Virus record (IMG/VR): IMGVR_UViG_2627853701_000009
Direction: 5' to 3' (one strand)
Length of the DNA: 64,000 nt
Source: a virus
Lineage: Duplodnaviria > Heunggongvirae > Uroviricota > Caudoviricetes
Shown: in pieces, positions 1-45,583 of the stretch
Position numbering within the stretch: the stretch's first letter is position 1
How the letters are laid out: each line of letters begins with the position of its first letter
Notes under the pieces: generated by a model
What the model was told of the DNA's origin: nothing
Database searches by the model: none
What the model saw: only the letters and a program-made list of their open reading frames with translations
Translations under genes and position numbers: made by a program

Positions 1-663
1 GCCTTGCCAGATGTTGTCTCAGATTCAGATTATGTCGCTCAATGCGCTGAGTGTAACGCTTGCTGATAACGTGCAGCTTTCCCTTCAGGCGTGATTCATA
101 CAGCGGCCAGCCATCCGTCATCCATACCACGACCTCAAAGGCCGACAGCAGGCTCAGAAGACGCTCCAGTGTGGCCAGAGTGCGTTCACCGAGGACGTGC
201 GCCACAACCGTCCTCCGTATCCTGTCATACGCGTAAAACAGCCAGCGCTGACGTGATTTAGCACCGACGTAGCCCCACTGTTCGTCCATTTCAGCGCAGA
301 CAATCACATCACTGCCCGGTTGTATGCGCGAGGTTACCGACTGCGGCCTGAGTTTTTTAAGTGACGTAAAACCGTGTTGAGGCCAACGCCCATAATGCGT
401 GCACTGGCGCGACATCCGACGCCATTCATGGCCATATCAATGATTTTCTGGTGCTTACCGGGCTGAGAGGCGGTGTAAGTGAACTGTAGTTGCCATGTTT
501 TACGGCAAGGAGAGCAGAGATAGCGCTGATGTCCGGCAGTGCTTTTGCCGTTACGCACCACGCCTTCAGTAGCGGAGCAGGAAGGACATCTGATGGAAAT
601 GGAAGCCACGCAAGCACCTTAAAATCACCATCATACACTAAATCAGTAAGTTGGCAGCATTAC
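1..663 (-). mobile_element. IS1 insertion sequence, partial (right end cut by window start); left terminus at about 663
   Basis: 91-aa ORF matches IS1 InsA; rc of 1-130 matches IS1 insB 3' region; rc of 641-663 is the IS1 terminal inverted repeat (GGTAATGCTGCCAACTTACTGAT). Confidence 0.85.
334..609 (-). CDS. insA: IS1 transposase subunit InsA
   Basis: [32 protein letters not shown]... near-identical to IS1 InsA from memory. Confidence 0.9.
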
Positions 664-833
664 CGAGATTGTTTTGTCGGAACTGATACGCTGGCGCTAA
701 TAGGTAGTAGGGTTCTTATGCAAAACATACAACCTCTTTCTTAATTTTCGAACCTGTTTAGGATTCTGTGTAAATTCAAAATAAACCTGTCTGAACATTC
801 CTAACAAACATCCACCGGACATGACAACAAAAA

Positions 834-855
834 CCGGAGCCGGACTCCGGTTTTT
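834..855. terminator. Bidirectional rho-independent terminator-like hairpin (CCGGAG-CCGGA-CTCCGG flanked by A and T runs) at tail-fibre end junction a
   Basis: Perfect 6-bp stem with A5 upstream and T5 downstream; same element at 16836-16856 and 20908-20928. Confidence 0.6.
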
Positions 856-868
856 GTGAAGCTGTCGG

Positions 869-1138
869 CTATTTCATTCCGCCAATATTTTCCCACGTCC
901 CGTCAGCACGCAGTATTTGCAGCGGTCTTACCACGCACTGTATCTGCTTTTTATCCGCATCCAGTATCACCACCTGCGTGATTACCCTGTCCTGCTCCGG
1001 GATAATACCATTCTCATCGGACTCCAGAATGTCTGCCGGTCCCAGTCGCAGCTGTGCTGTAAGTAACTCCCCGTTTTCACGGTCATCATGCTTTCCGCAA
1101 CCGCACAGACGCTGCATAAGTTTTTTTAGTATATTCAT
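869..1138 (-). CDS. Small protein (89 aa) directly downstream of tail fibre gene; function unknown
   Basis: ATG at 1138 two bases after fibre stop; conserved in copy B (20943-21212); C-terminal remnant reused at 16871-16942. Confidence 0.5.
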   Translation of the reverse strand: MNILKKLMQRLCGCGKHDDRENGELLTAQLRLGPADILESDENGIIPEQDRVITQVVILDADKKQIQCVVRPLQILRADGTWENIGGMK

Positions 1139-1139
1139 G

Positions 1140-2459
1140 TCATTCTCCTGTTCTGCCTGTATCACTGCCCACTTCATCCAGCCCCTTAACATCCTGCCAC
1201 GGCCCGTCACCAAACCTGACCTGCAAATGCTGAAAAAAACCCTGAACCCGTGTGGCATCTTTGGGGTCAAGAAAGGTCAGTCCGGTGATGAGTGCGCCAT
1301 CTGTATCCGGGAACCAGCCATGGCTGTTTGTCTCAATAATGCTCGCCGGCCCCAGACGAAAACGGATTTGTGTCTCCCCCGGGTCGCCCTTCGGTCCCTG
1401 AGGTCCGGTTGCCCCCACCGGGCCAGCCGCACCTGTTTCTCCTTTCGGTCCCTGTGGGCCTGCCGGGCCTGCCGCACCGGTATCTCCCTTTGGACCCTGT
1501 GGACCTGCATTTCCCGTCAGACCGGTCTCTCCCCGCTCTCCCCTGTCACCTTTCGGCCCCTGCGGGCCTGCCGGACCAGCATCACCTGCCGGTCCCCGTT
1601 CACCGGTTGCCCCGACAGGGCCGGTGTCACCGCGCTCTCCCTTATCACCCTTCGGCCCCTGAGGACCCGCGGGCCCCTGTTCCCCCTTTGGCCCGGGAGG
1701 TCCCACCACGGTGGGGATTCGGTTTACGGCCTCTTCCGCCGCTATCCTGCTTTGTTCCGCTGACTGTGCGCTTTCTGCTGACTCCCGGGCTTTTTCTGTT
1801 GCGGTCGTTGCATCCCTGGCTGCATTACCGGCTGCACTTTCTGCCGTCTTTCTTGACAATTCAGCTTCTGCTGCACTTTGTGATGACTCACTGGCTTTTT
1901 GAGCGGCCGCAGAAGCCGAGGACGAGGACGCATCCTCTGACTGCTTTGCAGCGGCTGCACTTTCTGCCGCCTGCCGGGCTGACTCCGATGCATCCCCTGC
2001 TGAAGTGTCAGCATTTGCAGCGCTCTCTTCTGCCTGACTGGCTGATATGCCGGCATTCCTCGCTGACGTCTCCGCCTCTCCGGCATTCTTCTTCGCCTCC
2101 TCAGCGTGACGCGCCACCTCTTCCACCATCAGTTCAAAACGACGCAGTGCCTCCGGCCGGACGTCATCCTCCGACATGGCACCGAGAAAATCATTCAGCG
2201 TCCCCGGTTGAGAATCTTCATACACGGTGATGGTCCCGGCATGTGACGGCGGGAATCCCTCCACCAACAGAATGACGCTGTACTGACCGTACTCAACGTC
2301 CATGCTGTAACGACCGGCTTCATCCGGATTTTCAGAGGCCACCGTGTTCACCACCACCGTGCTGCTGGTCCGTCTGGCTTTCAGTTGAATGGTGCAGTTC
2401 TCTACCGGTTTTCCTGTGCCGTCTTTCAGTACACCTGAAATCTTTACTGCCATATTCAC
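1140..2459 (-). CDS. Side tail fibre protein with collagen-like Gly-X-Y repeats
   Basis: Long run of GPxGxxG triplets ([28 protein letters not shown]...), Ala/Ser/Glu-rich coiled N-region; position after lom. Confidence 0.8.
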   Translation of the reverse strand: MNMAVKISGVLKDGTGKPVENCTIQLKARRTSSTVVVNTVASENPDEAGRYSMDVEYGQYSVILLVEGFPPSHAGTITVYEDSQPGTLNDFLGAMSEDDVRPEALRRFELMVEEVARHAEEAKKNAGEAETSARNAGISASQAEESAANADTSAGDASESARQAAESAAAAKQSEDASSSSASAAAQKASESSQSAAEAELSRKTAESAAGNAARDATTATEKARESAESAQSAEQSRIAAEEAVNRIPTVVGPPGPKGEQGPAGPQGPKGDKGERGDTGPVGATGERGPAGDAGPAGPQGPKGDRGERGETGLTGNAGPQGPKGDTGAAGPAGPQGPKGETGAAGPVGATGPQGPKGDPGETQIRFRLGPASIIETNSHGWFPDTDGALITGLTFLDPKDATRVQGFFQHLQVRFGDGPWQDVKGLDEVGSDTGRTGE

Positions 2460-2464
2460 CCCAC

Positions 2465-2490
2465 AAAAAAGCCCGCCTGAACCGGCGGGC
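2465..2490 (-). terminator. Rho-independent terminator downstream of lom
   Basis: Minus-strand hairpin GCCCGCC-GGTTCA-GGCGGGC followed by T6. Confidence 0.6.
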
Positions 2491-2517
2491 TGTCATAACA
2501 CTGTGTTACCTGGCTAA

Positions 2518-3117
2518 TCAGAACTTATAACCGACACCCACGATGAAACCGTCAGTGCGCCAGTCGCCACTGCCGGAGCCTTCATAAGCAATATCAATGG
2601 CCACGGATTCGGTCGGGTTAAACTGCACGCCAGCTCCCCACGCCAGAGACGTGTTGCTGTGGCGACCGTCATCACTTCCGGTCAGCACATCATGCGTTTT
2701 CCCCTTGTTGTCGGTCACCTGCAGATAATCACCGGAGAAAGTCGACACACGGCTGTAAGCCACACCCGCCATCGCATACGCGCTGAACCATTCATTCACG
2801 CGCACAGACGGCCCCGCCATATCGCTGAACCAGCGGTTACGCACGGAATCTTCATGCCAGCGGGTATCGCTGTAACGGGTCAGCTGGCGATTCTTGTCTC
2901 CTGCATAGCTGAATGACGTCACCATTCCCAGTGTGTCCGTAAACTCATAACGGTATTTCACGTTAATCCCGTTCAGTTCATCGCTGCCAGGAACGTTCGT
3001 CGAGACATGAAGATACCCCGCGCTCAGCGTTGACTGATGTTCAGACGCCCATGCAGGCGCACCGGATACGGCCAGACAAATGGCTGCGGACAAAATGGCG
3101 GCATAAAGTTTACGCAT
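2518..3117 (-). CDS. lom: Lom outer membrane protein (Ail/Lom family)
   Basis: 199 aa, signal peptide, near-identical to lambda Lom from memory. Confidence 0.9.
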   Translation of the reverse strand: MRKLYAAILSAAICLAVSGAPAWASEHQSTLSAGYLHVSTNVPGSDELNGINVKYRYEFTDTLGMVTSFSYAGDKNRQLTRYSDTRWHEDSVRNRWFSDMAGPSVRVNEWFSAYAMAGVAYSRVSTFSGDYLQVTDNKGKTHDVLTGSDDGRHSNTSLAWGAGVQFNPTESVAIDIAYEGSGSGDWRTDGFIVGVGYKF

Positions 3118-3141
3118 AATTACCTCTCGCTTTTCTGCAAT

Positions 3142-3165
3142 AAAAAAGGCGCCATTTCTGGCGCC
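3142..3165 (-). terminator. Rho-independent terminator between J and lom
   Basis: Minus-strand hairpin GGCGCC-AGAAAT-GGCGCC followed by T6. Confidence 0.6.
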
Positions 3166-3184
3166 CGTATATGGGTTATAAAAT

Positions 3185-6100
3185 TCAGCTGATACTGATG
3201 CCTGCGGTGGCTTTCTTCATCACCACAACCAGCAAATCGCTGATACTTGCTGTGGGATACCAGTTATTCACCAGCCATGCTGACACCGAAAACTCCAGCG
3301 TCATGTGACCGTGACCGGCAGGCATATCAATAACGCCACTGTAAATCAGCGTATTATCCAGCGCGGTACGGTTATAAATTTCAGCACCGTTTTTCCGCAC
3401 TATCAGACGGCATGAGGAGTAAATATCAGTATGCTCTCTCTCATGCTTAGCGCCGCTGAATGCCACCGCCGGAATAACAATCTGCCGGTCAAACGGCTGA
3501 TCGTCATAAACCCTGACGGTAATGGTCCCTGATGGCCACCGCTCCGGTGCCCGGGAGTCCCGCGGAAAAGCCTTACCCACTGTTTTGACTATATCGCCTT
3601 CAATCTGGTTGGCTGACAGTTTCCCCTTAATCTGACAGTTCTCATTAATCGTGACGTTGTTGAGCGTCCCCGCGTTCGCATTCACACTGCCACTGATATC
3701 CGCATTTTTAGCTGTCAGCTTTCCGTCCGGTGTCAGGGAAAATGCCGGCGGATTGCCGCCGGAGGTAATGGTGGGAGCCGTCAGGCGTTTCAGGAACACG
3801 TCGTTCATGAATATCTGATCGCCCTGACCAACAAACATCGGCTTTGTGTTGCCATTCGCAGGATTAATCATCGCAATCCTGTCTGCCGCCAGCAGCACCT
3901 GACTCTGCATTCCTGCTGGCGTATTCTCAATACCGGCACCGATACCCGCAATATAAAGGCGTCCGTCCTTCATCTGTTGCAGCTTCACAGCCCACATGCT
4001 GTTCAGATTATTATTTGTATCAACCTGAACCTTCTGTATCTGCTGGATCGCTGCACTCTGGTCTTCCAGTTTCTTATTGACGGTCTGCGTGATTTCATTA
4101 CTGACATCCGTGATGGACGTTCTGATTTCCGCCAGGTCAGGCGCAAGCTGACCGTTATCAATCTGAGTCCACAACTCCTGAGCCAGATGGGTTTTCCCTA
4201 TCTCTCCTTTGAAAAAATCCAGATAGCCGGATGCATCATCACTCGGCTGGCCAACAGCCTCCACAAATGCCGATTTGCCAACGGTGTTCACACTGCGGAT
4301 ATAAAAGTAATAATCATGGCCCGGTTTGATATTGATACTGGCGGCTATCCAGTACAGCCCCGTGCCAAGGTAGCGGGCTGTGGTTTCAACCTGCCTGATA
4401 TCGGTAATCCGCGTTTCCGAAAACCAGAACTCAAACTGTACCGTCGGGTCATACACCGCAAGACGCGGGACCGCTGTTATCTGAAAATAGCCCGGTGTCA
4501 GCTCAATCTGTGACGGCGCTGCCGGTGCGGCAATCCGGAACGATACCGACGCCGGATCGCCCTGCTGCCCCCACGCATTTACCGCCCGGACTGTCAGCCT
4601 GTAGTTCCCCGGCGCCAGTTGCGTGAAGCGGTATGTGGTTTCCGTCGTCCGGGCCGTGCTGACCAGCCGCTCACTGCCGTCATCCGCGGCCACGGTCAGG
4701 CGAAGCATAAAGCTCACGCCCTTCACCACCTTCGGCGTGTCCCATTTCGCCTGCGCCAGATACTGACCGTCAGCTGCGCTCACCTCCACCGTCAGGTGCT
4801 GCACTGCCGGAGGGATGACGCTGTTCAGGGTGCCTGACTGCGGCTCAAAGCTGGCCCCGTTATCCACGATGGCTTCCTTTTCCGGTACGTGCTGCACCGC
4901 CGTGATGGCAAAGGTGCCGTCCGTGTTTTCCCGGATGGAGACACAGCGGAACAGGCGACGACGCAGTGACGGCAGGGAGAGTCCCCATACACCGTATGTC
5001 TCCACACCATCAGGCAGGGTGCTGACCTGTATCCGGTCCGGCGCGGGGTGTGCAGTGATGGCCACGCTCACCGGCTTACCGCTGCCGTTAATCAGGTTCA
5101 CCGTGGCGGCACCGGTCTCCGGCAGGGTCACCTCACGGTCCAGTGTCAGGGTGCGGCTGGCGGCATCGATGGACAGGATACGTCCGCCGGTCATGGTCCC
5201 GGCATAGTCGTTATCACAGATTTCAATAATGTCACCGGGTGTGTGACGCAGCCCCTGTGACCCGAGCGTGAAATCCACCGTCTGCGTTTCCAGCAGTCCG
5301 GTCTTTATCACCCACAGCCCGGCACGGTGGGCCTGACCGCGACTGGTACAGCCGAACGCATCCATCTTCAGCAGGTTGCGCCCGTAGCGCAGTATGGCTT
5401 CCGGGTCTTCCACCAGTTCCGTGGAGGTCTGCCAGCCGTTCTGCGGGTCGGTGTAATTCACCTCCACCGCCGTGTGGCGGTCCTTCAGGGCGCTGAAGCT
5501 GTAGCGAAACCCCACGCCGTTATCATCCACCACCACATCACTGTTGGTGTACGGCCACACCACATCCGACGGGCTGTCCTGAACGAACGTCAGCGTCTGG
5601 CCGTTCCATACCGGCATACAGCGCATCGCCGAGCAGAAATCACTGAGAACGTCCCACGCCTTACGCTGTTGTGACAGGTACGCATTGAAAGTCATCCGCG
5701 GCTCTGTGCCCCCGAAACCATCCGGGACCGTCTGGTCGCAGTACTGTCCGATGGCATACAGCGCCCACTTGTCAACATCCGCCGCCACCAGACGTTTTCC
5801 CATGCCGTAGCGCGGGTGAGTCAGCATGTCCCACAGGCACCAGGCCGGGTTGTTGCTGTATGCCGGTTTCAGGCTGCCGTCCCAGATGCCGCTGTACGTG
5901 CGTTTTTCCGGGTCATAGTTTGACGGTACCTGGATGATGCGACCGCGGATATGGTAGTTCACCGTCATCTGCTGACCGCCAAACTGCTCCGCATCCACCT
6001 GCAGCCCCACAATCGCCGTGTTCGGGTAGCACTGTTTCACATCGATGATTTCGGTGTATGACGACCAGAGCGTCTTATTCTGCAGCTGGTCCGAGGTGCT

Positions 6101-6661
6101 GTCCGCTGTCTCCCGGACCATCCGGATGTTAAAGGGCCGCTCAGGCAGATTATCCAGAATCACCGACGCCAGAAACTGCGAGGTGGTCTTGCCGTTAATG
6201 GTGACATCCTTTTCCGTCACCCAGTTACCGTTACGCTGCAACTGAATCAGCAGTCGGACAGAAGAGGGATTACGGTCGCCCTTTGAGGTGGTCTCCAACA
6301 GTGACTGCACCCCGAAGGTGACCCGCAGGCGGTCAATGTTCGCGGACGTAATGGTGCGCGTCACCGGCTTTGCTTTCGTCACTTCCACGCCCAGTGCGGT
6401 TTCCGCCCCGGAGGACTCAAAGCCTTCAGGTGGTGTCTGCTCCTGCTCCCCGGCGCGCCAGACCGCTGTCACACCATGTATCACAGGATTACCGTCCGTG
6501 TCCGTCAGCGGGGTTTTGTTCACCAGGATACTCTGCAGCCCCTTCACCGGACCTTCAATCGGCCCTTCACCAATGGCGTCAATCACGCTCATCATCTGCG
6601 TGGACTTAAGATTGTCCTTTGCCTCTACCGGCGTGTGCCCCTTGCCGCCCCCTTTACCCAC
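3185..6661 (-). CDS. J: Tail tip host-specificity protein J (central tail fibre), 1158 aa from GTG
   Basis: Collinear with lambda J over full length; GTG start inferred because the upstream in-frame ATG extension is not conserved in copy B. Confidence 0.9.
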
Positions 6662-6735
6662 TCTGTCCCCCTCTCCTGTCTGATGTCTGAATCTGTTTAT
6701 GCCAGAAAACAACAGGCACCCCGGAGGTGCCTGTG

Positions 6736-6855
6736 TCATGACGGAATAAAATTTCTGAAACTCTTCACATTTCCGGCAATTGCCTGTAGCCGCAATAATG
6801 ACGCTGCATTACTTTTTTGATGCCTGAAAAATAACTCCATAACGTTAATCTTCAT
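6736..6855 (-). CDS. Candidate 39-codon ORF inside the inserted I-J intergenic region ([16 protein letters not shown]...)
   Basis: ATG with GGAG about 8 nt upstream; identical in copy B; flanked by two hairpins; no homolog recalled. Confidence 0.25.
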
Positions 6856-6900
6856 CGTTCTCTCCCGCAGCTCCGCTAACTCTGCGGGATTTTTTTATTT

Positions 6901-7578
6901 TCATCCCCGCCCGATAACCACCACTTTCCCGTCTCCGCCCTCATCACGGGTACTGATGTCCTGGGAGATTCGCCGGGAGCCAACCAGCATTTCACCGTAA
7001 GGCACCGGCATCGGGTTCCCCTGGGCAATCATGTTATCCAGCGAGGAAAAGTACGTGTTCTGTCTGCCGTTATCCGTTGCGCGGTAATCCGGTGTTTTTG
7101 CCTTCGGGGCCAGCATCTGGGCCACACCGCCCAGAATCATGCTGGCTCCAAGTGAAAACAGCATCGTGGTGGCAGAAAAACCACCGGCTGCCAGGGCTGA
7201 ACCCCATAACGCCATTGATGCCCCGGCAGTGAAGAAAGAGCCCACGATGGCTGCCGCCCCCAGCACAATCTGCAGTCCACCCTTTCCGGCCCCGGCCAGT
7301 CGCGGCACAATGTGGATGACCGTTCCCTCACCCAGCTGTTCGTGAAGACGGGCGTACACCGCCTCCGGTGCCGTGTCTTCACCGCGAATACGTATCTGGT
7401 ACCAGCCTTCGTTCATCTGACGGCGGAATCCCGGCATCTGCAGCGACAGGGCACGGATGGCTTCCGCTGCCGTGTTCACGTACAGGCTGAGGCGGCGGCC
7501 AAATCGTTGCAAATCCCCGTGAAGGCAGATGCGTGCCAGTGGCGGTGACGCCAGACAGAATGCGTTCGTCGTTGCCAT
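6901..7578 (-). CDS. I: Tail tip assembly protein I
   Basis: MATTNAFCLASPPLARICLHGDLQRFGRR... matches lambda I. Confidence 0.9.
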   Translation of the reverse strand: MATTNAFCLASPPLARICLHGDLQRFGRRLSLYVNTAAEAIRALSLQMPGFRRQMNEGWYQIRIRGEDTAPEAVYARLHEQLGEGTVIHIVPRLAGAGKGGLQIVLGAAAIVGSFFTAGASMALWGSALAAGGFSATTMLFSLGASMILGGVAQMLAPKAKTPDYRATDNGRQNTYFSSLDNMIAQGNPMPVPYGEMLVGSRRISQDISTRDEGGDGKVVVIGRG

Positions 7579-8219
7579 TTTTCCGAATACCTCTCCCGTT
7601 TACTCAGTTGTTCAGGCAGATGGTGAAGCAGTTCACCGTTGCCGCAGTATATGGCGGCATGATTGGCCACCGATGCGCCAAAGCAGCACAGCAGGATATC
7701 GCCCGCCTGTGCAGAGGACAGGGGCACCCGGTAAAAACCAGTCGCCGCCATATTGTCCAGGTAAAGGTTCTGACCGTTGCGCCACCAGTCATCCTCACGC
7801 ACAAAATCCGGCAGCGTTATCCCCGCCAGATGGTATGCATCCCGGAACAGGGTGTAACAGTCCGTCACCCCGTGCTCAAAACGACGCCCGGTCAGGTGCG
7901 GCACACAGCGGAATTTGTGAATTTCCCCCCGGCAGACCAGCCACCAGGGCAGGGCACTCTTTATCTGCAGCCGCCGGTCGGCCTCGCTCAGCCAGGGCAG
8001 ACCACCAGGGTGGCTGTGAACCAGCGCCACAATCTCCCCCTGCATCTCTGCCTGCAGCCAGTCTTCCGGCGCAATACGAAAATACGCCTCCGGCTCTGCG
8101 GAGATATTCACGCAGGGCTGGTACCGTTCGCCCTCCGGGGTGCCTATCACGAAGCCGCACGACTCCGCAGGCGCACACCGCCGGGCATGCACCAGAATCG
8201 CTGATTCAGTCTGTGTCAT
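7476..8219 (-). CDS. K: Tail tip assembly protein K (NlpC/P60 and JAB/MPN motifs), intact copy
   Basis: MTQTESAIL..., HSHPGG motif, DCYTLFRDAY Cys motif; position between L and I. Confidence 0.85.
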   Translation of the reverse strand: MTQTESAILVHARRCAPAESCGFVIGTPEGERYQPCVNISAEPEAYFRIAPEDWLQAEMQGEIVALVHSHPGGLPWLSEADRRLQIKSALPWWLVCRGEIHKFRCVPHLTGRRFEHGVTDCYTLFRDAYHLAGITLPDFVREDDWWRNGQNLYLDNMAATGFYRVPLSSAQAGDILLCCFGASVANHAAIYCGNGELLHHLPEQLSKRERYSEKWQRRTHSVWRHRHWHASAFTGICNDLAAASACT

Positions 8220-8229
8220 AAAACAGGAT

Positions 8230-8928
8230 TTACTGCGAAAGTTTATTGATGGAAAGGAAACCGCCAAAATTAGCCACCATGCCGCGCATCTCACACCCGC
8301 GCATGCACTTGCTGCATCTGTCCTTACGGATATCCGTGGTGGGGTTGTCGAACTCATCCGCCACCGCAGGACCGTTATACCCGCATTCATCTCCCCGGTA
8401 ATCCCACATACAGGTGTTCGCCAGCATGATGCGACCGGGAAACAGCGCACCGTCCGTCTCCGTCGGTGTTGCCAGCACAAACGAGGCTGTCATGGCCGTC
8501 AGCTCTGACATCTGCTCCACCACCCACCGGTCAGTCAGCTCCTGCTCCGGGTCGGCCTCCGGATTGCCTGCCACAAAGTTCACCGCATCCAGAAAACGGG
8601 CATACACCCGGCGGCGGACCACCGTGGCACCCACCAGGCTCTGCAAATCCTCCGCCATCCCGGTGACAAGACCGAACAGATTGGACACCGTCAGCGACGG
8701 GCGGGCACTGCTGCCCTTTCCGTTCATCTCAAAGCCACTGCCCTCAATCGGGTACGCCTGATATTGCCGCCCCTGCCAGGTCACCGGCTCCCCTTTTTCA
8801 TTCAGCTCATTGCAGAAAAAATACCGCTCACCGCCCTGCGCCGTCAGGTCGATTTCCCAGAGTACCACCCGCGGTGACTGCTCTGATTTAACCGACTCGT
8901 TCAGACTTTCTTCGTGAATATCCTGCAT
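8230..8928 (-). CDS. L: Tail tip protein L
   Basis: 232 aa, matches lambda L including C-terminal Cys cluster. Confidence 0.9.
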   Translation of the reverse strand: MQDIHEESLNESVKSEQSPRVVLWEIDLTAQGGERYFFCNELNEKGEPVTWQGRQYQAYPIEGSGFEMNGKGSSARPSLTVSNLFGLVTGMAEDLQSLVGATVVRRRVYARFLDAVNFVAGNPEADPEQELTDRWVVEQMSELTAMTASFVLATPTETDGALFPGRIMLANTCMWDYRGDECGYNGPAVADEFDNPTTDIRKDRCSKCMRGCEMRGMVANFGGFLSINKLSQ

Positions 8929-9257
8929 CAGTTCACCACCTGCTTAAACTCCGCGCTGAACTCAACGCGCAACATCCCGACCCGCGCAGACCACCCGGCA
9001 CAGGTCACCTTTATCTGCCGGTATGCATAGGGTGGCTTCCACAAAAATGCCTTCCAGCCTCCGTGCTCTGCCAGGAATGCCTCCAGATGTCGGGCCTCCT
9101 CCCGGGTCACGGAAAGCGTCACACGGTATGTTTTCAGGTCAGCATTCAGCCCTGCCGCCATACGCTGTGAGTACCCGTCACCAAAACGCACTTCACGCAC
9201 CGATGGCTGCGAGTTCACCTCCATATCCGGCTTCACTTTCCAGCGAAAGGTTTTCAT
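8928..9257 (-). CDS. M: Tail tip protein M
   Basis: 109 aa, matches lambda M. Confidence 0.9.
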   Translation of the reverse strand: MKTFRWKVKPDMEVNSQPSVREVRFGDGYSQRMAAGLNADLKTYRVTLSVTREEARHLEAFLAEHGGWKAFLWKPPYAYRQIKVTCAGWSARVGMLRVEFSAEFKQVVN

Positions 9258-28789: not shown

Positions 28790-31440
28790 CGCCTGCCTCC
28801 GGAAAAGACGCCGCCATCACGCATCTGCGCCTGAATCTCATCCTGCGCCCCCTTGCGGGCCATGTCATACACCGCCTTCATCAGCTGCGGCCCCGCCTGT
28901 CCGTTGGAGCCGTCGTTCTGAATCACCACGTGATTGTTCTGATTAAAATTAATGCCTTCCGTCCGCCGCATCTGCGCCGGACTTCCGGCACCACCCACAT
29001 AACCACCTTCCGCATAGCCGCGCATCAGACGGTAAAGATTCCCCACACCTATCCGGCTGGTTGCCTCTTTCGTGAAAACAAACTCCCCGCGGTGAACTAT
29101 CCCCGCAGGCTCATATTTGCCGCCCGTCCCCGTAAATCCTCCGGTCGCGAAATGGAAGTTCGCCGCCGCAGCCTGAATGGCCGTCCCCGAGGAAGCAGAT
29201 GCACCACCACCGAAAGCACCGCCAATGGCGCTGCCGATACGCCCGACAATGCCCACCATGGCCTGTTTAAGCAGGATTTCTGTCATCATGGACAGCACCG
29301 AACGGGTGAATCCCCGCCAGTCTGCCTCTGCACCGGTCAGCATCGCCGCCATATTCTGTGCAATACCGTCAAAGGTCTGCGTGGCAGCACTTTTAACCTG
29401 CGAAAAACTGTCCGTCGCACTTTCCGCCCACTCGCCCCAGCCGGACTTCAGCCCGGCCATCCAGCTTCCACGAAGCTGCTCCTCCGCAGACCTGGTGTTC
29501 TTCAGTGCCGATGTGGCCTTCGCCAGCGCAGCCGGATTATCACCGTACACGTCCCGAAGACGCTGCGCTTCAGACTCCCGCTGCGCCTGACGGTCAGTGA
29601 GACCGCGGGCTTTTGCGCTGATGGCGGCCTGCTTCGCGCTCTGCTGCTCTTCAAACCGCACCGCCTGCTGTGCCAGCTCATTCAGGCGTTTCTGGTATTC
29701 AACCTTGTCGCCCAGCTCAGCCAGCTGGCGTTTGTACTCCAGCGTCTCGTCTTTATGCGCCAGCAGGGATTTTTCCTGCTCAGATAACTGCCGTTTCGTG
29801 GCAGCCTCTTTCAGGACCGCATACTGATTTTCCGCTTTCCATAAATCACGGCGCTGCCGGCTGATTTTCTCATTCGCACCGCTGTGTTTTTCCAGCGTCC
29901 TGAGCTCAGCTTCAAGGGCAAGCAGAGCCTCTCTTGCCTGCTCCTCTTCCCTCTCCCCGGCAGAGCGCGTTTTCGGTGATGTATGCTTTTTACCTGTCAG
30001 CTCTTCAGCCAGACGGCTGACGGCTTCCTGCTGCCCCGGACCTTTGCTGACGCCTGTTGCACGCGAGCGGTTGATGTACCCCATTTCCCCCTGGCGTATA
30101 CGCGCATCCCGTTCCGCAATGGATTTTCTCAGCGCCAGTTCATCGCGTTTTGTTTTCTCAATAAATACGCGGTTCTCTTCTGCCAGTTCACCAAACAACG
30201 CACCAACGCCGGGCACATTCTTTGTCGTTTCCCAGGCTGACTGAATAAATTCAGCCAGCGCCAGATCCCCCTGCACAAGCAGCAGCTTCACCTGTTCAAC
30301 GGTTCCTGCCACCACGTCAGTGATCAGACTGAGTGCCCCCAGTGTATGATCACCTATCCATGCCCATGCGTCAGAAGTCCAGGTTTTAACATCGTCCCAG
30401 ATTTTTTCCACCGGCGTGGCCGCTTTATCAAGTTGCTCCAGACGTGCATTCATGACATCCGCAAACAGGGACATCGCCTCCGTCACCGCAGCCTGTTTAC
30501 CTTTCGTGCGCTCAAGCTCATCAATATGGCGTAACTGGGAAACGCTCAGGAAGTTATACTGCTGATTCAGGGAGGCCAGCGCCTTCACCGGATCTGCTGC
30601 AATCCCTTCAAAGGCTTTTTCCACCTTCCCGGCATCGTCCCCCACCGTCTGCAGCCATCTCTGAGAGGTTTCCCCCATGATCCGTAGCTGCCCGGCGGTA
30701 TATTTCCCGCTTTCTGCCAGACGGGCCAGATTTTCTGCCGCCTGTCTGATACCACCACCGGCTTCATCGCTGATCACCCCGGCCATTTTCCACAATTCTG
30801 CCGTTGTGGTGGCAGCAGCCCCTCCGGTCAGGGTCAGTGAACGCAATAAGGCCCGGTCAGCCTGCTCTGCCTGCCAGGCGGCGGCAGCAAGCGCGGCCAG
30901 TACGGCAACCCCGCCACCTGCCGCCACACGGGCCACCGACATAAATCGTCCCAGCTCACCGGCATTCCGGGCATTTTCAGCCAGTGCATTTGCCGTATCT
31001 GACAGCGACTCCTCTGATGATTCAGAGGCATCCCTGATCCCGAGAAGTTCCTCCTTCAGCAGGGTAAGCAGGCTGAGCGGTCCACCGAATGAATCGCTGA
31101 TCTGCCCCCCCTGCTGCAGCATGATAAGGAAGGGATTCTGACCACCGGCAAGCTGAGTGACAATATCCGTGAACTGTGCGGGCAGTGTGCGCATGGCAGC
31201 CTTATACTGTCCGACTGATATCCCGGCTTTTTGTGCAGCCAGCGCCTGTCGGCTCAGACTCTGCTCAGCAGCATCAGCCTGTTTTCTGAAAGACTGACTG
31301 ACTTTCCCGGACATCAAATCAGCAAGCGCACTGGTTTCACCCAGCTCTTTTTTTACCCGCGCTGCCTCTTCAGAAAAACGGGCAGAATCCAGTGTCAGCA
31401 CGGCTGTCAGATCGGCAAAATTACCTGCCATCGTGGTCAC
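28786..31440 (-). CDS. H: Tape measure protein H (copy B)
   Basis: 884 aa, near-identical to copy A. Confidence 0.9.
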   Translation of the reverse strand: MTTMAGNFADLTAVLTLDSARFSEEAARVKKELGETSALADLMSGKVSQSFRKQADAAEQSLSRQALAAQKAGISVGQYKAAMRTLPAQFTDIVTQLAGGQNPFLIMLQQGGQISDSFGGPLSLLTLLKEELLGIRDASESSEESLSDTANALAENARNAGELGRFMSVARVAAGGGVAVLAALAAAAWQAEQADRALLRSLTLTGGAAATTTAELWKMAGVISDEAGGGIRQAAENLARLAESGKYTAGQLRIMGETSQRWLQTVGDDAGKVEKAFEGIAADPVKALASLNQQYNFLSVSQLRHIDELERTKGKQAAVTEAMSLFADVMNARLEQLDKAATPVEKIWDDVKTWTSDAWAWIGDHTLGALSLITDVVAGTVEQVKLLLVQGDLALAEFIQSAWETTKNVPGVGALFGELAEENRVFIEKTKRDELALRKSIAERDARIRQGEMGYINRSRATGVSKGPGQQEAVSRLAEELTGKKHTSPKTRSAGEREEEQAREALLALEAELRTLEKHSGANEKISRQRRDLWKAENQYAVLKEAATKRQLSEQEKSLLAHKDETLEYKRQLAELGDKVEYQKRLNELAQQAVRFEEQQSAKQAAISAKARGLTDRQAQRESEAQRLRDVYGDNPAALAKATSALKNTRSAEEQLRGSWMAGLKSGWGEWAESATDSFSQVKSAATQTFDGIAQNMAAMLTGAEADWRGFTRSVLSMMTEILLKQAMVGIVGRIGSAIGGAFGGGASASSGTAIQAAAANFHFATGGFTGTGGKYEPAGIVHRGEFVFTKEATSRIGVGNLYRLMRGYAEGGYVGGAGSPAQMRRTEGINFNQNNHVVIQNDGSNGQAGPQLMKAVYDMARKGAQDEIQAQMRDGGVFSGGRR

Positions 31441-31474
31441 CTCCTGAAATGTCCTCTGATACCATCAATAACTG

Positions 31475-31835
31475 TCACAACCTCCTTCCCTCCTCCCCGA
31501 AACGGACTCCACCGGCGAGGCCCGCCGCCTTCTGCATCAGTACATCATTTTCGTCCGGCGTCTCCGCCTGTCCTTCCTCTGCCTCCGGAGCGAACAGGCT
31601 GAAATCCGCCGGATGCATATCCGGATCGCAAAAAAACAGGCTGAGTACGGCGTACATCAGCCCGGAAAAATGCATATCCAGCTGGGTATCCTGAAAATAA
31701 TGCGTGCAGTAAAAACGTCGCCAGTCGGCATATTCGGTGGATGTCATCCCGGCAAGCATGGCGCGCCAGTCGGCTCTCTCCATCTCACGCGCCAGTTTCA
31801 GGACAAAGTTCAGCTCGCCTTCGAATGCTTTTTTG
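31475..31835 (-). CDS. T: T portion of G-T via -1 frameshift (copy B); slippery site rc of 31828-31834
   Basis: Same A_AAA_AAG heptamer and overlapping frame as copy A. Confidence 0.75.
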
Positions 31836-32232
31836 ATGTTACCGGCTCAGTCGCTTCTGTTTTCCCGGTTGGTTCAGGATCGGCATCGTGCCGGTTATCC
31901 AGCATACCTGAAAGATAAAGCACCCGGTTCGTTGCCTGATTCAGTGCATCAGCAGGCCATCCCAGCATCACTTCACGGCGGATCTGCTGCATCTCTGTCT
32001 CCGGAGAGGCCAGAGTGCCTTTGAGGGAATGGGAATGCCATAGCGACATCGCCACAAGCAGGGATGCCGTTTCCAGATATCGCTGGTTAATGTGCACGAC
32101 ATCATGCTTCGTTGTCTCCTGTTGTTCTGCGTCTGAAACAAACTTTATATAATCAAACCGCTGCAGCGCAGACAATTCGGAAAGCGTGACGGACACACCG
32201 TTATATTCAAATTGTTCTGTTTTCAGAAACAT
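31810..32232 (-). CDS. G: Tail assembly chaperone G (copy B)
   Basis: 140 aa. Confidence 0.85.
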   Translation of the reverse strand: MFLKTEQFEYNGVSVTLSELSALQRFDYIKFVSDAEQQETTKHDVVHINQRYLETASLLVAMSLWHSHSLKGTLASPETEMQQIRREVMLGWPADALNQATNRVLYLSGMLDNRHDADPEPTGKTEATEPVTSKKHSKAS

Positions 32233-32245
32233 GTATTACCTCCGT

Positions 32246-32998
32246 TTACCCTGCAGCGCCCGCTTCAGTAACGGTGACTTCAGCCACTGCGGCGAACTGA
32301 CCATTTCCGCTCACCACAGGGATCTGCACCTTACCTGTCGCCACGCCGTTTACCGTAATTGTCATATCTTTCACACTAATGGTGGCTTTCGACGGATCGG
32401 CGGAAACCGCTCTGAACGTCTTGTCGGTTGCACTTTCCGGCTCAAAAGAAACCGTCAGGGTGGTTGTTTTCCCTTTTGCCACCGTACCGGATGTCGGTGT
32501 CACCTTAATTGCAGTGGCCGGCGTAATTTCGCTGCGTTCTTCCGCCACGGAAGGTTTGCCCACGTTAGTGACTTTCACCGTGCGGGTGATCACTTCTTTC
32601 GCCGTCACGGCCTTACCGATACTGCTGACCCAGCCACGGAACACATCCACCGTGCCATTTGGGAAACGGATTTTATAGGCCCGCACATCCCCGCTTTCAA
32701 ACCAGCCTATAAGCCCTTTCTGACCTTCTTCTCCCGGTTTCCAGGCCAGCGTAAAACTGGTATCTCCTGCAGACTTCTGCCCCTGCCCGGTCGCGGTCCA
32801 GTCCGCGTCTTCATCATCCAGGTAGTTATCATCGTAGGGTTCTGCCGTCATCTCGCCCGGCGTCAGATCCTTCACCTTAGCCAGTCGCTGCCAGTCATCG
32901 TCTGACAACGGGTTTGCATAAGCATCACCCTTGCCGTTGTAAACCCACAGAGTGGTACCGGCACCTTTTACCGGCTCAAGGGGATTTGGTGTTGCCAT
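32246..32998 (-). CDS. V: Major tail protein V (copy B)
   Basis: 250 aa identical to copy A. Confidence 0.9.
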
Positions 32999-33005
32999 AT
33001 CGTCC

Positions 33006-33401
33006 TCACATCTCGTATGTAATGGAATAAGTCAGATCCGCAGAACTCCATAACGCCATATCGTCATCACGACGATACTCATAGCCCTGCGTAACCATCG
33101 TCGTAATCAGGTCTGCCAGTGCCGGGATCGCAGTCACCGCCGGATAAATCCGGCTTTCCATCCACTGATCAAGCTCCGAATCCGGTACCTGTGCCGGTAA
33201 AAACACCTCAATATGCAGTGTGGCCCGCCAGGTATCTGCATCCAGCTCTTCACCGGTATACTCTGCATCCGTCAGATAAACCGCGACGGCCGGAAAATCC
33301 TCTTCGTCAAAAACAACGGGGCGACCATCAAACAGCGTCGCCCCGTGTTCATGCAGCTCCAGTGCATCCAGCACTGCCGCACGGATATCAGTATGTTTCA
33401 T
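33006..33401 (-). CDS. U: Tail terminator U (lambda-like allele)
   Basis: 131 aa, [28 protein letters not shown]..., close to lambda U. Confidence 0.9.
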
Positions 33402-33931
33402 CGTTTTATCGCAATCCTAAGTTGTTGTTTCAGCGCGTATGCCAGTTCTCCGGGCAGACGTTCACGCCGGATACGGTCAATATTCTCATCAAACGCCTGT
33501 TTCAGTGGGGCCGCCATCGGGATTTTCACCACATCAATGGGGTAACGGTTTTTCCCGGCCACACGCTGCATGACATGCCAGCGACCATTTTTTAATCGCT
33601 GGATAAATGCCCGCTGATACCGATGCTGACCAGCTTTAAGTATGCTGTCCGGACGACGGCCCAGCATCCTGATCCCCAGCTTAATCACAGGGAGATCACC
33701 GCGTTTAACGATAATTCTGGCATTCGGATTTCTGACCGTGGCCCGTTTCAGTCTGGACCGTTCCTTTACCAGTTTCCGGCGTACCTTTGTCTCCCGGGCA
33801 ACCTGTGATGAAGACTGATTAATCGCCGTTGTGGCCACGCGGTTAATGGCCATTGCTGAAGCCGCCGGAATGGCGTTTTTACGAACCCGGCTCAGATTTT
33901 CAATCGCCTGATCAAGCCCTTTTATCGCCAT
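33398..33931 (-). CDS. Z: Tail completion protein Z
   Basis: 177 aa, MAIKGLDQAIENLSRVRKNAIPAASAMAINRVA..., lambda Z-like. Confidence 0.85.
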   Translation of the reverse strand: MAIKGLDQAIENLSRVRKNAIPAASAMAINRVATTAINQSSSQVARETKVRRKLVKERSRLKRATVRNPNARIIVKRGDLPVIKLGIRMLGRRPDSILKAGQHRYQRAFIQRLKNGRWHVMQRVAGKNRYPIDVVKIPMAAPLKQAFDENIDRIRRERLPGELAYALKQQLRIAIKR

Positions 33932-33945
33932 AATTCACCCTGCGT

Positions 33946-34299
33946 TTATCGTCGCCGGTTAACTGCCGGTGGTTGCCCACGGTTGAGCCAGAGATAACAA
34001 CTCCCTCCGTCATCCGGAGAAACACGGTCCACCCAGAACATCTCGCCGTTAATGGTCAGCGTGTCACCACGCCGCAGTTGCCGCACATCATCAGTCCGGA
34101 CAAACAGGGACGGGCTGGAGCCTTCAACGCGCACGCCCTGTCCGGCATAGCTGATATTTTCAGGGTCATCAAAAACACCACGTATTACTGCGCCGGACCG
34201 CTCACCGGATGTCATGGTGGCTGACGTTCCCATGTACCCGCGTATCGTTTCATCGGCGCGGGCAATGGCAGCATCGAACAGGTTATCGAAATCAGCCAC
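33946..34299 (-). CDS. FII: Head-tail joining protein FII
   Basis: 117 aa, MADFDNLFDAAIARADETIRGYMGTSA..., near-identical to lambda FII. Confidence 0.9.
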   Translation of the reverse strand: MADFDNLFDAAIARADETIRGYMGTSATMTSGERSGAVIRGVFDDPENISYAGQGVRVEGSSPSLFVRTDDVRQLRRGDTLTINGEMFWVDRVSPDDGGSCYLWLNRGQPPAVNRRR

Positions 34300-34310
34300 A
34301 GCGCCTCCCG

Positions 34311-34709
34311 TTATTGCATTCTGGCCAGGCCGCGCTCTGTCATTTCGGCTGCCACACCGGCAGAGACACGAAACGCCGTTCCCGGCAGCACAAATGCCAC
34401 AGGTTCATCCCGCGTGACGTGAAGTGCATCAGTATGCAGCTTCACCAGTGCCACGACCGTGACCAGTTCAGACGTATCCAGAATCACGGTATCCGGCTGC
34501 GCTGATCCCACCTCATTTTCATGTCCGGTCAGCACATTTTCCCGGCTGAGAGGGGTGTCCTGACCGGCAGTTTCATCCGTGTCATCAAGCTCCTCTTCCA
34601 GCTCTGCCACACGGAGCGCCAGTTCTTCTTTCGTCCCCGTCAGGCTGACATCACGGTTCAGTTGTTCACCCAGCGAGCGGAGACGGGCAATCAGTTCATC
34701 TTTCGTCAT
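34311..34709 (-). CDS. FI: DNA packaging protein FI
   Basis: MTKDELIARLRSLGEQLNRDVSLTGTKEEL..., lambda FI. Confidence 0.85.
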   Translation of the reverse strand: MTKDELIARLRSLGEQLNRDVSLTGTKEELALRVAELEEELDDTDETAGQDTPLSRENVLTGHENEVGSAQPDTVILDTSELVTVVALVKLHTDALHVTRDEPVAFVLPGTAFRVSAGVAAEMTERGLARMQ

Positions 34710-34750
34710 GGACTCCTCCACAGAAAAACAATGGCCCCGAAGGGCCATGA

Positions 34751-35776
34751 TTACGCCAGTTGTACGGACACGAACTCATCAGGGTCAGCCAGCAGCATCA
34801 GCGGTGCTGACTGAATCATGGTGAACTCACGCGCCGGATCGCCGGTGGTCACCCAGTTTTTCGGGTAACGGGCAGAGGCGTTAATGCCTTCGCGCTGTGC
34901 GTCCGCATCCTGAATGCAGCCATAGGTACGCAGACCGCGTGCCTGAGTGTTCCCCAGCACCATCGTGTTGTCCGGCAGGAAGTTCTTTTTGACGCCGTTT
35001 TCCACGTACTGTCCGGAATACACGACGATGGCCACATCGCCATACATTCCCTTATAAGACACCGCTTTGCCCAGGTCTTTTACCGCTGTCTCCAGTTCGG
35101 AATGAGAGCCGCGACGGGTATCCAGCTTCTCCCTGACGGCTTTGAAGGAACGGAACAGCGCCCAGCCTTTCGGGTCAAACACGATGATATTCACCACGCC
35201 GCTGGCGTTCAGCGCGTAGGCTTCGATATCGTCGGTCGGGTCATACGTGGACTTGTCACGCTTGCTCCACTCCGTGCCGCCGGACTGCGTGATGTTGTTC
35301 GCCGCACTGCGGCCCATATCCACCTCAACCGGATCGAAGGCTTCACCGGTCATGGTGTATTTGCCCTTGAGCACGGCAGAAACTGCCTGCATCTCTTCGA
35401 CCTGAGCAATGGCCAGCTCTTCGTCACGCATGTTCTGCATGATGATGCGACGGCGGCGGTAAGCCGGGTCCGCCAGATTCTGCGGATCTTCATCCGGCAG
35501 GCGACGCAGGGTCATCTGCGGATTCACTTCATGCTTCGGCTTGACATATCCCGGCGTAAATTCAGAGGTGGAGCCGCCACGGGAACGGATAACCTCACCA
35601 GAAACAATCGGCGAAACGTACAGCGCCATGTTTACCAGTCCCGGAATTTGTGAGAGATAGACTTTCTCCGTGGTGAAGGGATAGCTCTCACGGAAAAAGA
35701 GACGCAGAAACAGCGGATCAAACTTAAATTTCTGCTCATTTGCCGCCAGCAGTTGGGCGGTTGTGTACATCGACAT
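34751..35776 (-). CDS. E: Major capsid protein E
   Basis: 341 aa from MSMYTTAQLLAANEQKF..., lambda E. Confidence 0.9.
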   Translation of the reverse strand: MSMYTTAQLLAANEQKFKFDPLFLRLFFRESYPFTTEKVYLSQIPGLVNMALYVSPIVSGEVIRSRGGSTSEFTPGYVKPKHEVNPQMTLRRLPDEDPQNLADPAYRRRRIIMQNMRDEELAIAQVEEMQAVSAVLKGKYTMTGEAFDPVEVDMGRSAANNITQSGGTEWSKRDKSTYDPTDDIEAYALNASGVVNIIVFDPKGWALFRSFKAVREKLDTRRGSHSELETAVKDLGKAVSYKGMYGDVAIVVYSGQYVENGVKKNFLPDNTMVLGNTQARGLRTYGCIQDADAQREGINASARYPKNWVTTGDPAREFTMIQSAPLMLLADPDEFVSVQLA

Positions 35777-35831
35777 AAAAAAATCCCGTAAAAAAAGCCG
35801 CACAGGCGGCCTTTAGTGATGAAGGGTCAGG

Positions 35832-36164
35832 TTAAACGATGCTGATTGCCGTTCCGGCAAACGCGGTCCGTTTTTTCGTCTCGTCGCTGGCAGCCTCCGG
35901 CCAGAGCACATCCTCATAACGGAACGTGCCGGACTTGTAGAACGTCAGCGTGGTGCTGGTCTGGTCAGCAGCAACCGCAAGAATGCCAACGGCAGCACCG
36001 TCGGTGGTGCCATCCCACGCAACCAGCTTACGGCTGGAGGTGTCCAGCATCAGCGGGGTCATTGCAGGCGCTTTCGCACTCAATCCGCCGGGCGCGGTTG
36101 CGGTATGAGCCGGGTCACTGTTGCCCAGCGGCTGGTAATGGGTAAAGGTTTCTTTGCTCGTCAT
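35832..36164 (-). CDS. D: Capsid decoration protein D
   Basis: [31 protein letters not shown]..., lambda D. Confidence 0.9.
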
Positions 36165-36173
36165 AAACATCCC

Positions 36174-37473: not shown

Positions 37474-37493
<20 letters not shown>
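36174..37493 (-). CDS. C: Head maturation protease/scaffold C (GTG start; Nu3-like scaffold expected nested in-frame)
   Basis: VTAELRNLPHIASMAFNEPLMLEPAYARVFF..., lambda C; ClpP-like protease motifs. Confidence 0.85.
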
Positions 37494-41174
<3,681 letters not shown>

Positions 41175-41200
<26 letters not shown>

Positions 41201-41720: not shown

Positions 41721-41739
41721 GAAACAGTCTCACAACAAA

Positions 41740-42331: not shown

Positions 42332-42412
42332 ACGACTTATATATGACACAAAAAGCGACCACTAAAGTCGCTTTTTCTTATGGTAACAGGCAATAACGCT
42401 CTCAGATATTTT

Positions 42413-45582: not shown

Positions 45583-45583
45583 T

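Follow-up and report, generated by a model that had tools for sequence, protein, structure and literature searches.

Two lambda-like tail modules on either side of one junction: a 64-kb sequence probably derived from tandem ompW prophages of the O157:H7 EC4115 type rather than from a tail-module duplication

Prophages integrated at ompW (PPompW), their effector locus and the presence of two PPompW in tandem in O157:H7 have been described by Nakamura et al. 2021 (PMC8112680), and complementation among defective O157 prophages by Asadulghani et al. 2009 (PMC2669165). In EC4115, the annotated order is ompW, a first prophage running from int to fibre, the effector locus, an ompW remnant, a second prophage running again from int to fibre, another ompW remnant and yciE. 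Since ompW is present in three pieces and the two integrases are 99.7% identical, this organization points to two integrations at one att site. The junction between the tandem prophages was found in 87 of 5,426 complete E. coli genomes, and in these 87 both tail modules are placed inside two full prophages, with an ompW remnant and a second int between them. The two phages have the integrase, the excisionase and the tail modules in common but not the head genes and Z/U. Similarity at the nucleotide level to the first prophage (prophage B, below) covers only 12.3 of the 30.7 kb of the second EC4115 prophage body, and there is none in the head region.

The window analysed here is a stretch of 64,000 nucleotides of tailed-phage DNA. 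Its positions 14148-64000 are collinear, at 99.9-100% identity, with EC4115 1679045-1728901, i.e. the first lambdoid prophage at ompW, which is of the Sp9/CP-933P type and carries the effector genes nleA, nleH1-2 and nleF; we refer to it as prophage B. Besides its tail module, prophage B has, in 33398..64000, gpZ, a lambda-type head set (FII, FI, E, D, C, B, W), terminase, lysis genes and two tRNAs, early genes among which are paa, repressor and replication genes, and also exo, xis and int. With 99.7% identity to the integrase of the second ompW prophage, its integrase belongs to the PPompW type (>90% identity, near ompW); in EC4115, ompW lies 45 bp beyond int, and ompW itself and the att sites fall just outside the window. 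Positions 1-14153 match the tail of the second ompW prophage (EC4115 1766706-1780859) at 99.1% identity. Of the second prophage, which in EC4115 has an int of its own, the window holds only the U-to-fibre tail; both its body from int to Z and the internal ompW (att) remnant are absent. The initial annotation had pointed to EHEC O157 prophages for comparison, and both modules were indeed located in the tandem ompW prophages of EC4115. Hence the tandem arrangement is already known, and the locus is ordinary apart from one odd junction. The window thus shows the tandem PPompW structure altered either by a deletion or by a mis-join.

Self-BLAST of the window revealed three direct-repeat blocks, all with E = 0 (Table 1), which bears out the two tail gene sets in direct orientation that had been proposed initially. 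Overall, 802-13801 (copy A) matches 20876-33333 (copy B) at 94.7% identity over 12,361 aligned bases (~12.4 kb), and the homology is about 300 bp longer than the 795-13487 and 20875-33017 first given for this repeat. It ends in the 3' part of gene U on one side and 67 bp past the fibre C-terminal gene on the other. At ~95% identity, the copies are not the near-identical pair previously claimed, nor are they adjacent, as a 7-kb block of effector genes lies between them. All genes of both modules are carried by the minus strand. Both copies show the lambda-type siphovirus order Z-U-V-G(T)-H-M-L-K-I-J with matching families, and in both, Pfam hits above the curated cut-offs were obtained for Minor_tail_Z, Phage_tail_U, Phage_TTP_12, Phage_TAC_2, TMP_2 with Tape_meas_lam_C, Phage_min_tail, Phage_tail_L, Prok-JAB with NLPC_P60, Lambda_tail_I and GpJ domains.

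Table 1. Coordinates of the features of the window
Feature	Position	Strand	Remark
Repeat block 1	802-2476 vs 20876-22545		94.6% identity
Repeat block 2	2528-5131 vs 22680-25280		89.2% identity
Repeat block 3	5751-13801 vs 25282-33333		96.6% identity
IS1 copy, cut by window edge	1..640	-	Collinear with EC4115 IS1 transposase; downstream of copy A fibre genes; inner end ~640 is an estimate
Tail module copy A, extent homologous to copy B	802..13801	-	Self-BLAST, Pfam; every ORF intact
Copy A fibC	869-1138	-	
Copy A fibN	1140-2453	-	
Copy A lom	2518-3117	-	
Copy A J	3185-6661	-	1158 aa
Copy A I	6901-7479	-	
Copy A K	7476-8219	-	
Copy A L	8230-8928	-	
Copy A M	8928-9257	-	
Copy A H	9254-11899	-	
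Copy A T-frame ORF	11943-12251	-	
Copy A G	12278-12700	-	
Copy A V	12714-13466	-	
Copy A U	13474-13872	-	
Copy A gpZ 3' fragment, truncated at junction	13885..14153	-	Pfam Minor_tail_Z, profile positions 118-190 only
Junction hexamer GGATCC, common to both parental sequences	14148..14153	.	
ISEc8 (IS66 family) truncated remnant, last 143 bp	14148..14290	+	Sakai ISEc8 repeat_region end = window 14290; EC4115 transposase CDS 3' end agrees
Exchangeable effector locus of prophage B	14291..20875	.	99.9-100% identical to EC4115, EDL933, Sakai Sp9; annotated there
IS256-family remnant	14538-15172		
nleF	15219-15788	-	
nleH1-2	15854-16765	-	
Fibre-C remnant	16777-16942		Third fibre-end repeat in self-BLAST
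Degraded integrase	~16937-17930	+	
nleA	18591-19916	+	
nleG-family gene, frameshifted	~20256-20830	-	
Tail module copy B, two lesions	20876..33333	-	Self-BLAST, Pfam
Copy B fibC	20943-21212	-	
Copy B fibN	21214-22518	-	Without one Gly-Glu-Arg collagen triplet
Copy B lom	22670-23269	-	
Copy B J	23337-26192	-	951 aa, 207 aa shorter than J of copy A
Copy B I	26433-27011	-	
Copy B K	27008-27751	-	TAG at 27692-27694
Copy B L	27762-28460	-	
Copy B M	28460-28789	-	
Copy B H	28786-31431	-	
Copy B G	31810-32232	-	
Copy B V	32246-32998	-	
Copy B U	33006-33401	-	
Prophage B remainder	33398..64000	-	100.0% identical to EC4115 1679045-1703548, annotated there
Prophage B int	62870-64000	+	100% collinear with EC4115 int

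Copy A is intact from U to J and truncated within Z at 14153, and its Pfam hits make up the full lambda tail set (U, V, G, TMP, M, L, K, I, J and fibre). The remaining gpZ fragment is 100% identical to the EC4115 gene RS09630 up to that point. Copy A is closer to the tail of the second EC4115 prophage (99.1%) than to copy B (94.7%). It is nevertheless unusually diverged, with 131 differences from its best match, which consist of substitutions with paralog-like alleles, and no genome exceeds 97.9% identity to its tape-measure segment. Exact-protein look-ups of its H and fibre gave no record, a weak indication given that the copy B fibre control was also negative; the copy B fibre protein used as this control differs from that of EC4115 at several bases. 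The assignment of copy A to a separate phage draws on the 99.1% identity and the 100% identical flanks in EC4115, not on the window alone.

The lesions initially ascribed to copy B were all recovered. The J gene has an in-frame loss of 621 bp, which reduces the protein from 1158 to 951 aa and removes exactly the Pfam Phage-tail_3 domain (PF13550; residues 330-498 of the copy A protein); a search for a direct repeat at the endpoints of this deletion found none of note. The amber in K lies at codon 20, TAG in copy B and TCG in copy A. RefSeq annotates this K as an internal-stop pseudogene and J as a 2856-bp gene. The fibre is indeed one collagen triplet short, and the Lom proteins are only 82.5% identical, in line with a distinct lom allele. 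Copy B shows 13 differences from EC4115 in 19,201 bases. On comparison with CP-933P of EDL933, the identity is 99.75% for window 14148-25280, and the distal part of copy B remains ~100% identical up to ~25434, upstream of which it falls to 82-96% or the sequences cannot be aligned. The copy B module is, on this comparison, evidently a hybrid, of the Sakai/EDL933 Sp9 type from the effector locus to the middle of J and of the copy A type upstream from the J N-terminus. With the K amber and a J that has lost its central hub domain, the prophage B tail is predicted to be crippled. By analogy with the defective O157 prophages (PMC2669165), copy B could be complemented in trans if another tail module supplied K and J in intact form.

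The effector locus lies beyond the tail fibre, as in the tandem PPompW, and comprises nleA, nleH and nleF as well as an nleG pseudogene (15219-20830); the Sakai annotation assigns this block to prophage Sp9. The 21-bp attB-in-PP_1 (GTCATGCAGTTAAAGTGGCGG), which in tandem PPompW marks the end of the effector locus, was sought in the window allowing up to 2 mismatches and not found; in EC4115 and EDL933 it is located inside the part absent from the window. A scan of the spacer for promoters and terminators gave counts equal to the shuffled expectation.

The identity between the two tails is mosaic, varying from 79 to 100%, and stretches as long as 1,016 bp match exactly within a 5% diverged background. 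This mosaic argues for module exchange and not for a recent segmental duplication. We estimate at about 90% the probability that the two tail sets are the late-operon modules of two distinct lambda-like prophages, inserted in the same orientation at ompW as in O157:H7 of the EC4115/TW14359 type. Copy B would then belong to the complete first prophage (Sp9/CP-933P type), running from int (62870-64000) to the fibre (20943) and on to the effector locus, and copy A would be the intact U-to-fibre tail of the second prophage. The int-to-Z body of the latter and the outer part of the effector locus of the first prophage would be lost in the window. The likeness of A and B would stem from the pool of tail modules that lambdoid phages share and recombine, not from copying at the ompW locus. 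The initial annotation had instead described a tandem 12-kb duplication of the tail module. If a segment of one prophage had truly been duplicated in tandem and one of the copies had then decayed, this would account for the direct orientation and the equal gene order, for the 100% amino acid identity of V and M, and for the ~3.2 kb between the 5' half of H and V that are almost identical in both copies. Such an origin is, however, contradicted by the synteny with EC4115 and the unrelated head DNA, by the mean divergence of 5.3% with patches of only 79-89% in lom and the J C-terminus, and by the greater proximity of copy A to the tail of another prophage. Moreover, just upstream of the shared block the amino acid identity drops to 60% for U and 54% for Z, each module has its own downstream cargo, and the 87 complete genomes place the modules in two separate prophages. 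A segmental duplication would be characterized by near-identity throughout, a novel duplication junction and the absence of independent element borders, a pattern that the two copies do not show, and we consider this explanation very improbable. The general point of the earlier proposal, that such repeats drive deletion, inversion and exchange, fits the mosaic identity and the hybrid copy B. Homologous recombination and gene conversion can, we infer, act on the pair of copies A and B.

The junction itself, across which the window reads GGGATCCAGAAAGC, has to be considered separately. The 37,810 bp of EC4115 absent at this point contain ISEc8, espM1, nleG and the ompW remnant as well as the int-to-gpZ part of the second prophage, and correspond to a whole number (10) of BamHI fragments, GGATCC being present in both parents. 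Both flanks are 100% identical to EC4115 and overlap by 6 bp, making for a clean join. Since this junction is unique to the window sequence, so is the 20-kb spacing of the modules. A 3.5 kb query across it found no match in the 5,426 complete E. coli genomes or in 50,697 phage records, an exact 40-mer found none in GTDB genome contigs and metagenome contigs, and two ORF versions across the junction are not on record by exact-protein look-up. An IS-mediated deletion was rejected, as the breakpoint does not coincide with the end of ISEc8 but lies 143 bp within it, and nothing else of the element remains.

As regards the junction only, we give an even chance to a real, strain-specific deletion of 37.8 kb, resulting in a composite element with two tail modules. 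It could have occurred through illegitimate recombination on the 6-bp GGATCC, or through cutting and religation at two GGATCC sites, and would have taken out the hybrid att site together with the second prophage from int to Z and the outer part of the effector locus. The clean join is consistent with such an event, as are the finished quality of the remaining window, collinear with complete genomes, and the known variation of O157 effector loci through deletions (PMC8112680). On the other hand, neither the junction (0 of 5,426 complete genomes, nor the phage, genome and metagenome collections) nor the ORFs spanning it are on record, and a breakpoint hexamer that is a BamHI site in both parents is unlikely by chance. 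The exact position of both breakpoints on GGATCC, with ten whole BamHI fragments missing, would fit an artefact arising in vitro or in silico. For instance, a BamHI/Sau3AI clone could have been chimeric or have suffered an internal deletion, or the assembly could have been mis-joined; the true genome would then have the EC4115 arrangement with the modules ~58 kb apart. The uniqueness of the junction among the collections searched points the same way, and the unusual fine-scale mosaic of the adjacent copy A could be yielded by a mixed consensus of paralogous tails. We see this as a serious possibility but lean slightly against it, since no gaps, Ns or other quality signs mark the join, natural gene conversion explains the paralog-like substitutions of copy A equally well, and BamHI cloning plays no part in modern assemblies. 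It seems improbable that cutting and religation at GGATCC (restriction-type breakage), or 6-bp recombination, took place in vivo to give a composite ompW element of ~67 kb, with both tail modules on the same strand, in which K and J of copy A rescue the prophage B tail; in such an element, Q-antiterminated late transcription from the upstream prophage could extend into the downstream orphan module, where K and J are intact.

The feature is accordingly relabelled from a duplication to two prophages. In EHEC, the presence of several near-identical lambdoid tail modules leads both to assembly errors and to real deletions, inversions and exchange of host-range determinants and effector cargo, and the window is a textbook example of this assembly and rearrangement problem. 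The past exchange inside J of copy B and the long exact tracts between A and B illustrate, rather than extend, what was established previously (PMC8112680; PMC2669165). The suspicious junction at a BamHI site and the atypically mosaic copy A should be verified before this assembly is used for prophage typing.

Among known systems, the tail of bacteriophage lambda (Z-U-V-G-T-H-M-L-K-I-J-lom-stf) has the same order and the same Pfam families from Z to J, followed by Lom and then a side-fibre gene. Unlike lambda stf/tfa, the fibre here belongs to the collagen-repeat type known from prophages (phage_tail_N, Collagen, Phage_fiber_C) and is followed by a small second fibre-C gene; also unlike lambda, T3SS effector cargo is found downstream of the tail. 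The pool of defective O157 prophages (PMC2669165) similarly displays point and deletion lesions in morphogenesis genes alongside intact paralogous modules. Those prophages are known to be complemented and to recombine, the present comparison being one of genes only, and the K and J lesions of prophage B differ from the ones tabulated for Sakai Sp9, whose morphogenesis module is different. Sp9 of Sakai, equivalent to CP-933P of EDL933, shares the integration site of prophage B and matches it at 99.75-100% identity in the effector locus, in fibre and lom, and over the C-terminal two thirds of J, whereas its proximal tail (with a longer tape measure) and head module are of other types and its J is full length (3473-3477 bp). 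Neither Sakai nor EDL933 has a second prophage at ompW; this rules out the label Sp10 for the copy A prophage, as does the position of Sakai Sp10 at the site taken by Rac in K-12 (PMC2669165). The closest relatives are the tandem PPompW of EC4115, TW14359, TR01 and FRIK2069 (PMC8112680). Compared with these, the window is without the 37.8 kb between the modules, which hold the internal ompW remnant, the second int and attB-in-PP_1, but it has the same first prophage (99.9-100% identical), the same effector locus (nleA, nleH1-2, nleF) and integrase type, and a second tail module of the same type (99.1%) in the same orientation.

Self-comparison of the window resolves three collinear direct-repeat blocks, which bear out the two look-alike, directly oriented tail gene sets of the initial annotation: copy A on the left and copy B on the right. 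The minus strand carries every long ORF of both, and Pfam profiles recover in each the full lambda set Z, U, V, G, H, M, L, K, I, J, Lom and a collagen-type fibre. In a three-way alignment, the copies share 94.7% identity over 12,361 aligned bases, but this identity is strongly mosaic: values are 79-90% for lom and J's C-terminal half, 92-97% from I to mid-H and nearly 100% at ~10.3-13.3 kb, after which they fall within gene U to 82% and 69%. The longest exact common runs measure 1,016, 899 and 756 bp. At the protein level, V and M are 100% identical, followed by G, K and L (about 99%), H (98.1%), I (96.9%), the fibre (96.8%), J (93.6%), U (60%) and Z (54%).

The lesions initially ascribed to copy B are present. 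Its J lacks 621 bp in frame (951 aa vs 1158 aa in copy A), and the 207-aa gap is exactly the Phage-tail_3 domain (PF13550), the other five GpJ domains being kept. In K, codon 20 is an amber TAG where copy A has TCG; the fibre is one G-E-R collagen triplet shorter, and the lom allele is distinct (Lom proteins 82.5% identical). In E. coli O157:H7 EC4115, where the sequence is identical, RefSeq likewise lists J as a gene of 2856 bp and annotates the C40 peptidase as an internal-stop pseudogene.

Coordinates of the features in the window and their counterparts
Feature	Window	Counterpart	Identity or state
Copy A	802-13801		
Copy B	20876-33333		
Repeat block 1	802-2476	20876-22545	94.6%
Repeat block 2	2528-5131	22680-25280	89.2%
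Repeat block 3	5751-13801	25282-33333	96.6%
Unique to copy A	5132-5750		~620 bp
Second prophage tail	1-14153	EC4115 1766706-1780859	99.1%
Prophage B and effector locus	14148-64000	EC4115 (NC_011353.1) 1679045-1728901	collinear
Part of the same	20800-40000	EC4115	13 differences in 19.2 kb
Part of the same	39500-64000	EC4115	100.0%
CP-933P match	14148-25280	EDL933	99.75%
Identity switch in J	25280-25434		
Amber codon, copy B K	27692-27694		TAG
Tape-measure segment, copy A	9700-11500		
Junction hexamer	14148-14153		GGATCC
attB-in-PP_1 (21 bp)		L002 (EC4115) 15825-15845; L001 (EDL933) 12059-12079	absent from window
Partial fibre C-terminus	16777-16942	775-940 and 20876-21014	91-96%
Partial fibre end to degraded integrase	16777-17930		
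142-bp direct repeat	14396-14537	18074-18215	76.8%
tRNA stretch	46000-47523		
PerC-family gene and paa	42413-42727 and 52488-53246		

The label of tandem duplication, however, proved wrong. The EC4115 counterpart of the copy B region is a lambda-like prophage (prophage B), with 45 bp between its int and ompW. Beyond its fibre follow, in order, a frameshifted nleG, nleA, a degraded integrase, a fibre-C remnant, nleH1-2, nleF, an IS256 remnant and ISEc8, an effector block annotated as prophage Sp9 in Sakai and corresponding to CP-933P in EDL933. The counterpart of copy A lies elsewhere in EC4115 and is the tail of a second lambdoid prophage. Indeed, the EC4115 order runs from ompW through the first prophage (int to fibre) and its effector locus to a 126-bp ompW remnant, then to the second int-xis, early genes, terminase, portal and ClpP-capsid fusion head, and finally to Z-U-V...J-lom-fibre, IS1, a kinase gene, a second ompW remnant and yciE. 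Outside the tail, resemblance to the body of the second prophage is limited to 12.3 of the 30.7 kb of prophage B. Since the two integrases are 99.7% identical and no similarity was found between the head and terminase region of prophage B and the second prophage, the copies are tails of two different phages sharing one att site and a common type of tail module, not the products of a duplication. This module is part of a widely shared pool, since VT1-Sakai and several Stx2a phages have its Z-U-V-G segment at 99.5-99.9% identity.

Copy B itself is a recombinant tail. The effector locus, fibre, lom and distal J closely match CP-933P, and the first 155 bp past the J deletion are still 100% identical to it. 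Upstream of ~25434, identity to CP-933P is down to 96% and sinks further, to 83% and 58%, where J starts; beyond, in M, H and the following genes, no similarity between copy B and CP-933P was found. Throughout the region upstream of ~25434, copy B resembles copy A at 95-100%. This pattern places a crossover in J, within its N-terminal third, and is direct sequence evidence for the kind of exchange invoked by the initial annotation. Furthermore, since identity switches at this position and J is full-length in Sakai and EDL933 (3473-3477 bp), an Sp9-type prophage probably had its proximal tail and head exchanged for another module in the lineage of EC4115 and the window, and the 621-bp deletion, ~150 bp from the switch, would be a derived lesion.

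Of the two late tail operons of lambda type in the window, one is intact apart from Z and the other bears two inactivating lesions; they have long exact tracts in common, and J records a historical crossover. By analogy with lambda and O157 biology (PMC2669165, PMC8112680), each module would be transcribed from the late promoter of its own phage, copy B could be complemented in trans by intact K and J of other prophages, and the repeats may be substrates for RecA-type or phage recombinases. Copy A, in the window as given, would be without a late promoter of its own. Since the repeats are in direct orientation, deletion or gene conversion would be expected, not inversion.

The two matched segments lie 37,810 bp apart in EC4115. 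The stretch absent from the window holds most of ISEc8, espO1-2, nleG, espM1, IS630 and IS3 remnants, the attB-in-PP_1 21-mer and an ompW remnant, as well as the second prophage from int to mid-gpZ. The join leaves the last 143 bp of ISEc8 and only profile positions 118-190 of gpZ. Both flanking matches are 100% identical to EC4115 for >550 bp and overlap by GGATCC, a BamHI site found at both parental positions and at nine further places inside the missing stretch. The join may be a real microhomology deletion; its position on a BamHI site that both parents have is also compatible with a cloning or assembly artefact, or with an in vivo cut-and-religate event. A real deletion and an artefact seem roughly equally likely. 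The junction was not found in the complete E. coli genomes, phage records, and genome or metagenome contigs searched, and no gene products spanning it are on record. In EC4115 and EDL933, the effector locus has at its outer end the attB-in-PP_1 site described by Nakamura et al.; since it falls inside the missing stretch, this prophage-in-prophage integration site is lost from the window sequence.

Over 14.1 kb, copy A shows 131 differences from its best database match, and it is ~100-fold more diverged from it than the neighbouring 50 kb, nearly identical to the same genome. At 77 of the 127 within-repeat differences it has the copy B base, and its tape-measure segment has no match >97.9% among complete E. 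coli genomes. Any one of three causes would account for this divergence: gene conversion between paralogous tails, the arrival of a distinct phage, or a mixed consensus.

Several other features were observed. Within the effector locus, a third, partial tail-fibre C-terminus with downstream sequence abuts a degraded tyrosine integrase, just 36% identical to the ompW-type Int; they look like two ends of another integrated element, almost wholly deleted. The 142-bp direct repeat has one unit between the ISEc8 and IS256 remnants and the other upstream of nleA. Prophage B carries genes for a PerC-family regulator and Paa (AcfC-family adhesin), as annotated on the identical EC4115 sequence. Downstream of its DNA methyltransferase gene, beside truncated DUF1737 and DUF6645 genes, are tRNA-Arg(TCT) and a CAT-anticodon tRNA (Met per ARAGORN, Ile per RefSeq). 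This stretch contains no toxin gene and presumably corresponds to the stx position of Stx phages.

Unusual features are limited to the GGATCC junction of the window and the mosaic state of copy A. Among 5,426 complete E. coli genomes, 87 have the tandem junction of effector-locus end, ompW remnant and int, and tandem prophages integrated at ompW (PPompW) are known biology of O157:H7. Indeed, Nakamura et al. 2021 (PMC8112680) described O157:H7 with two tandem PPompW, PPompW prophages with an exchangeable effector locus (nleA, nleH, nleF, espM, nleG), and recombination between the ompW and ydfJ prophage clusters.
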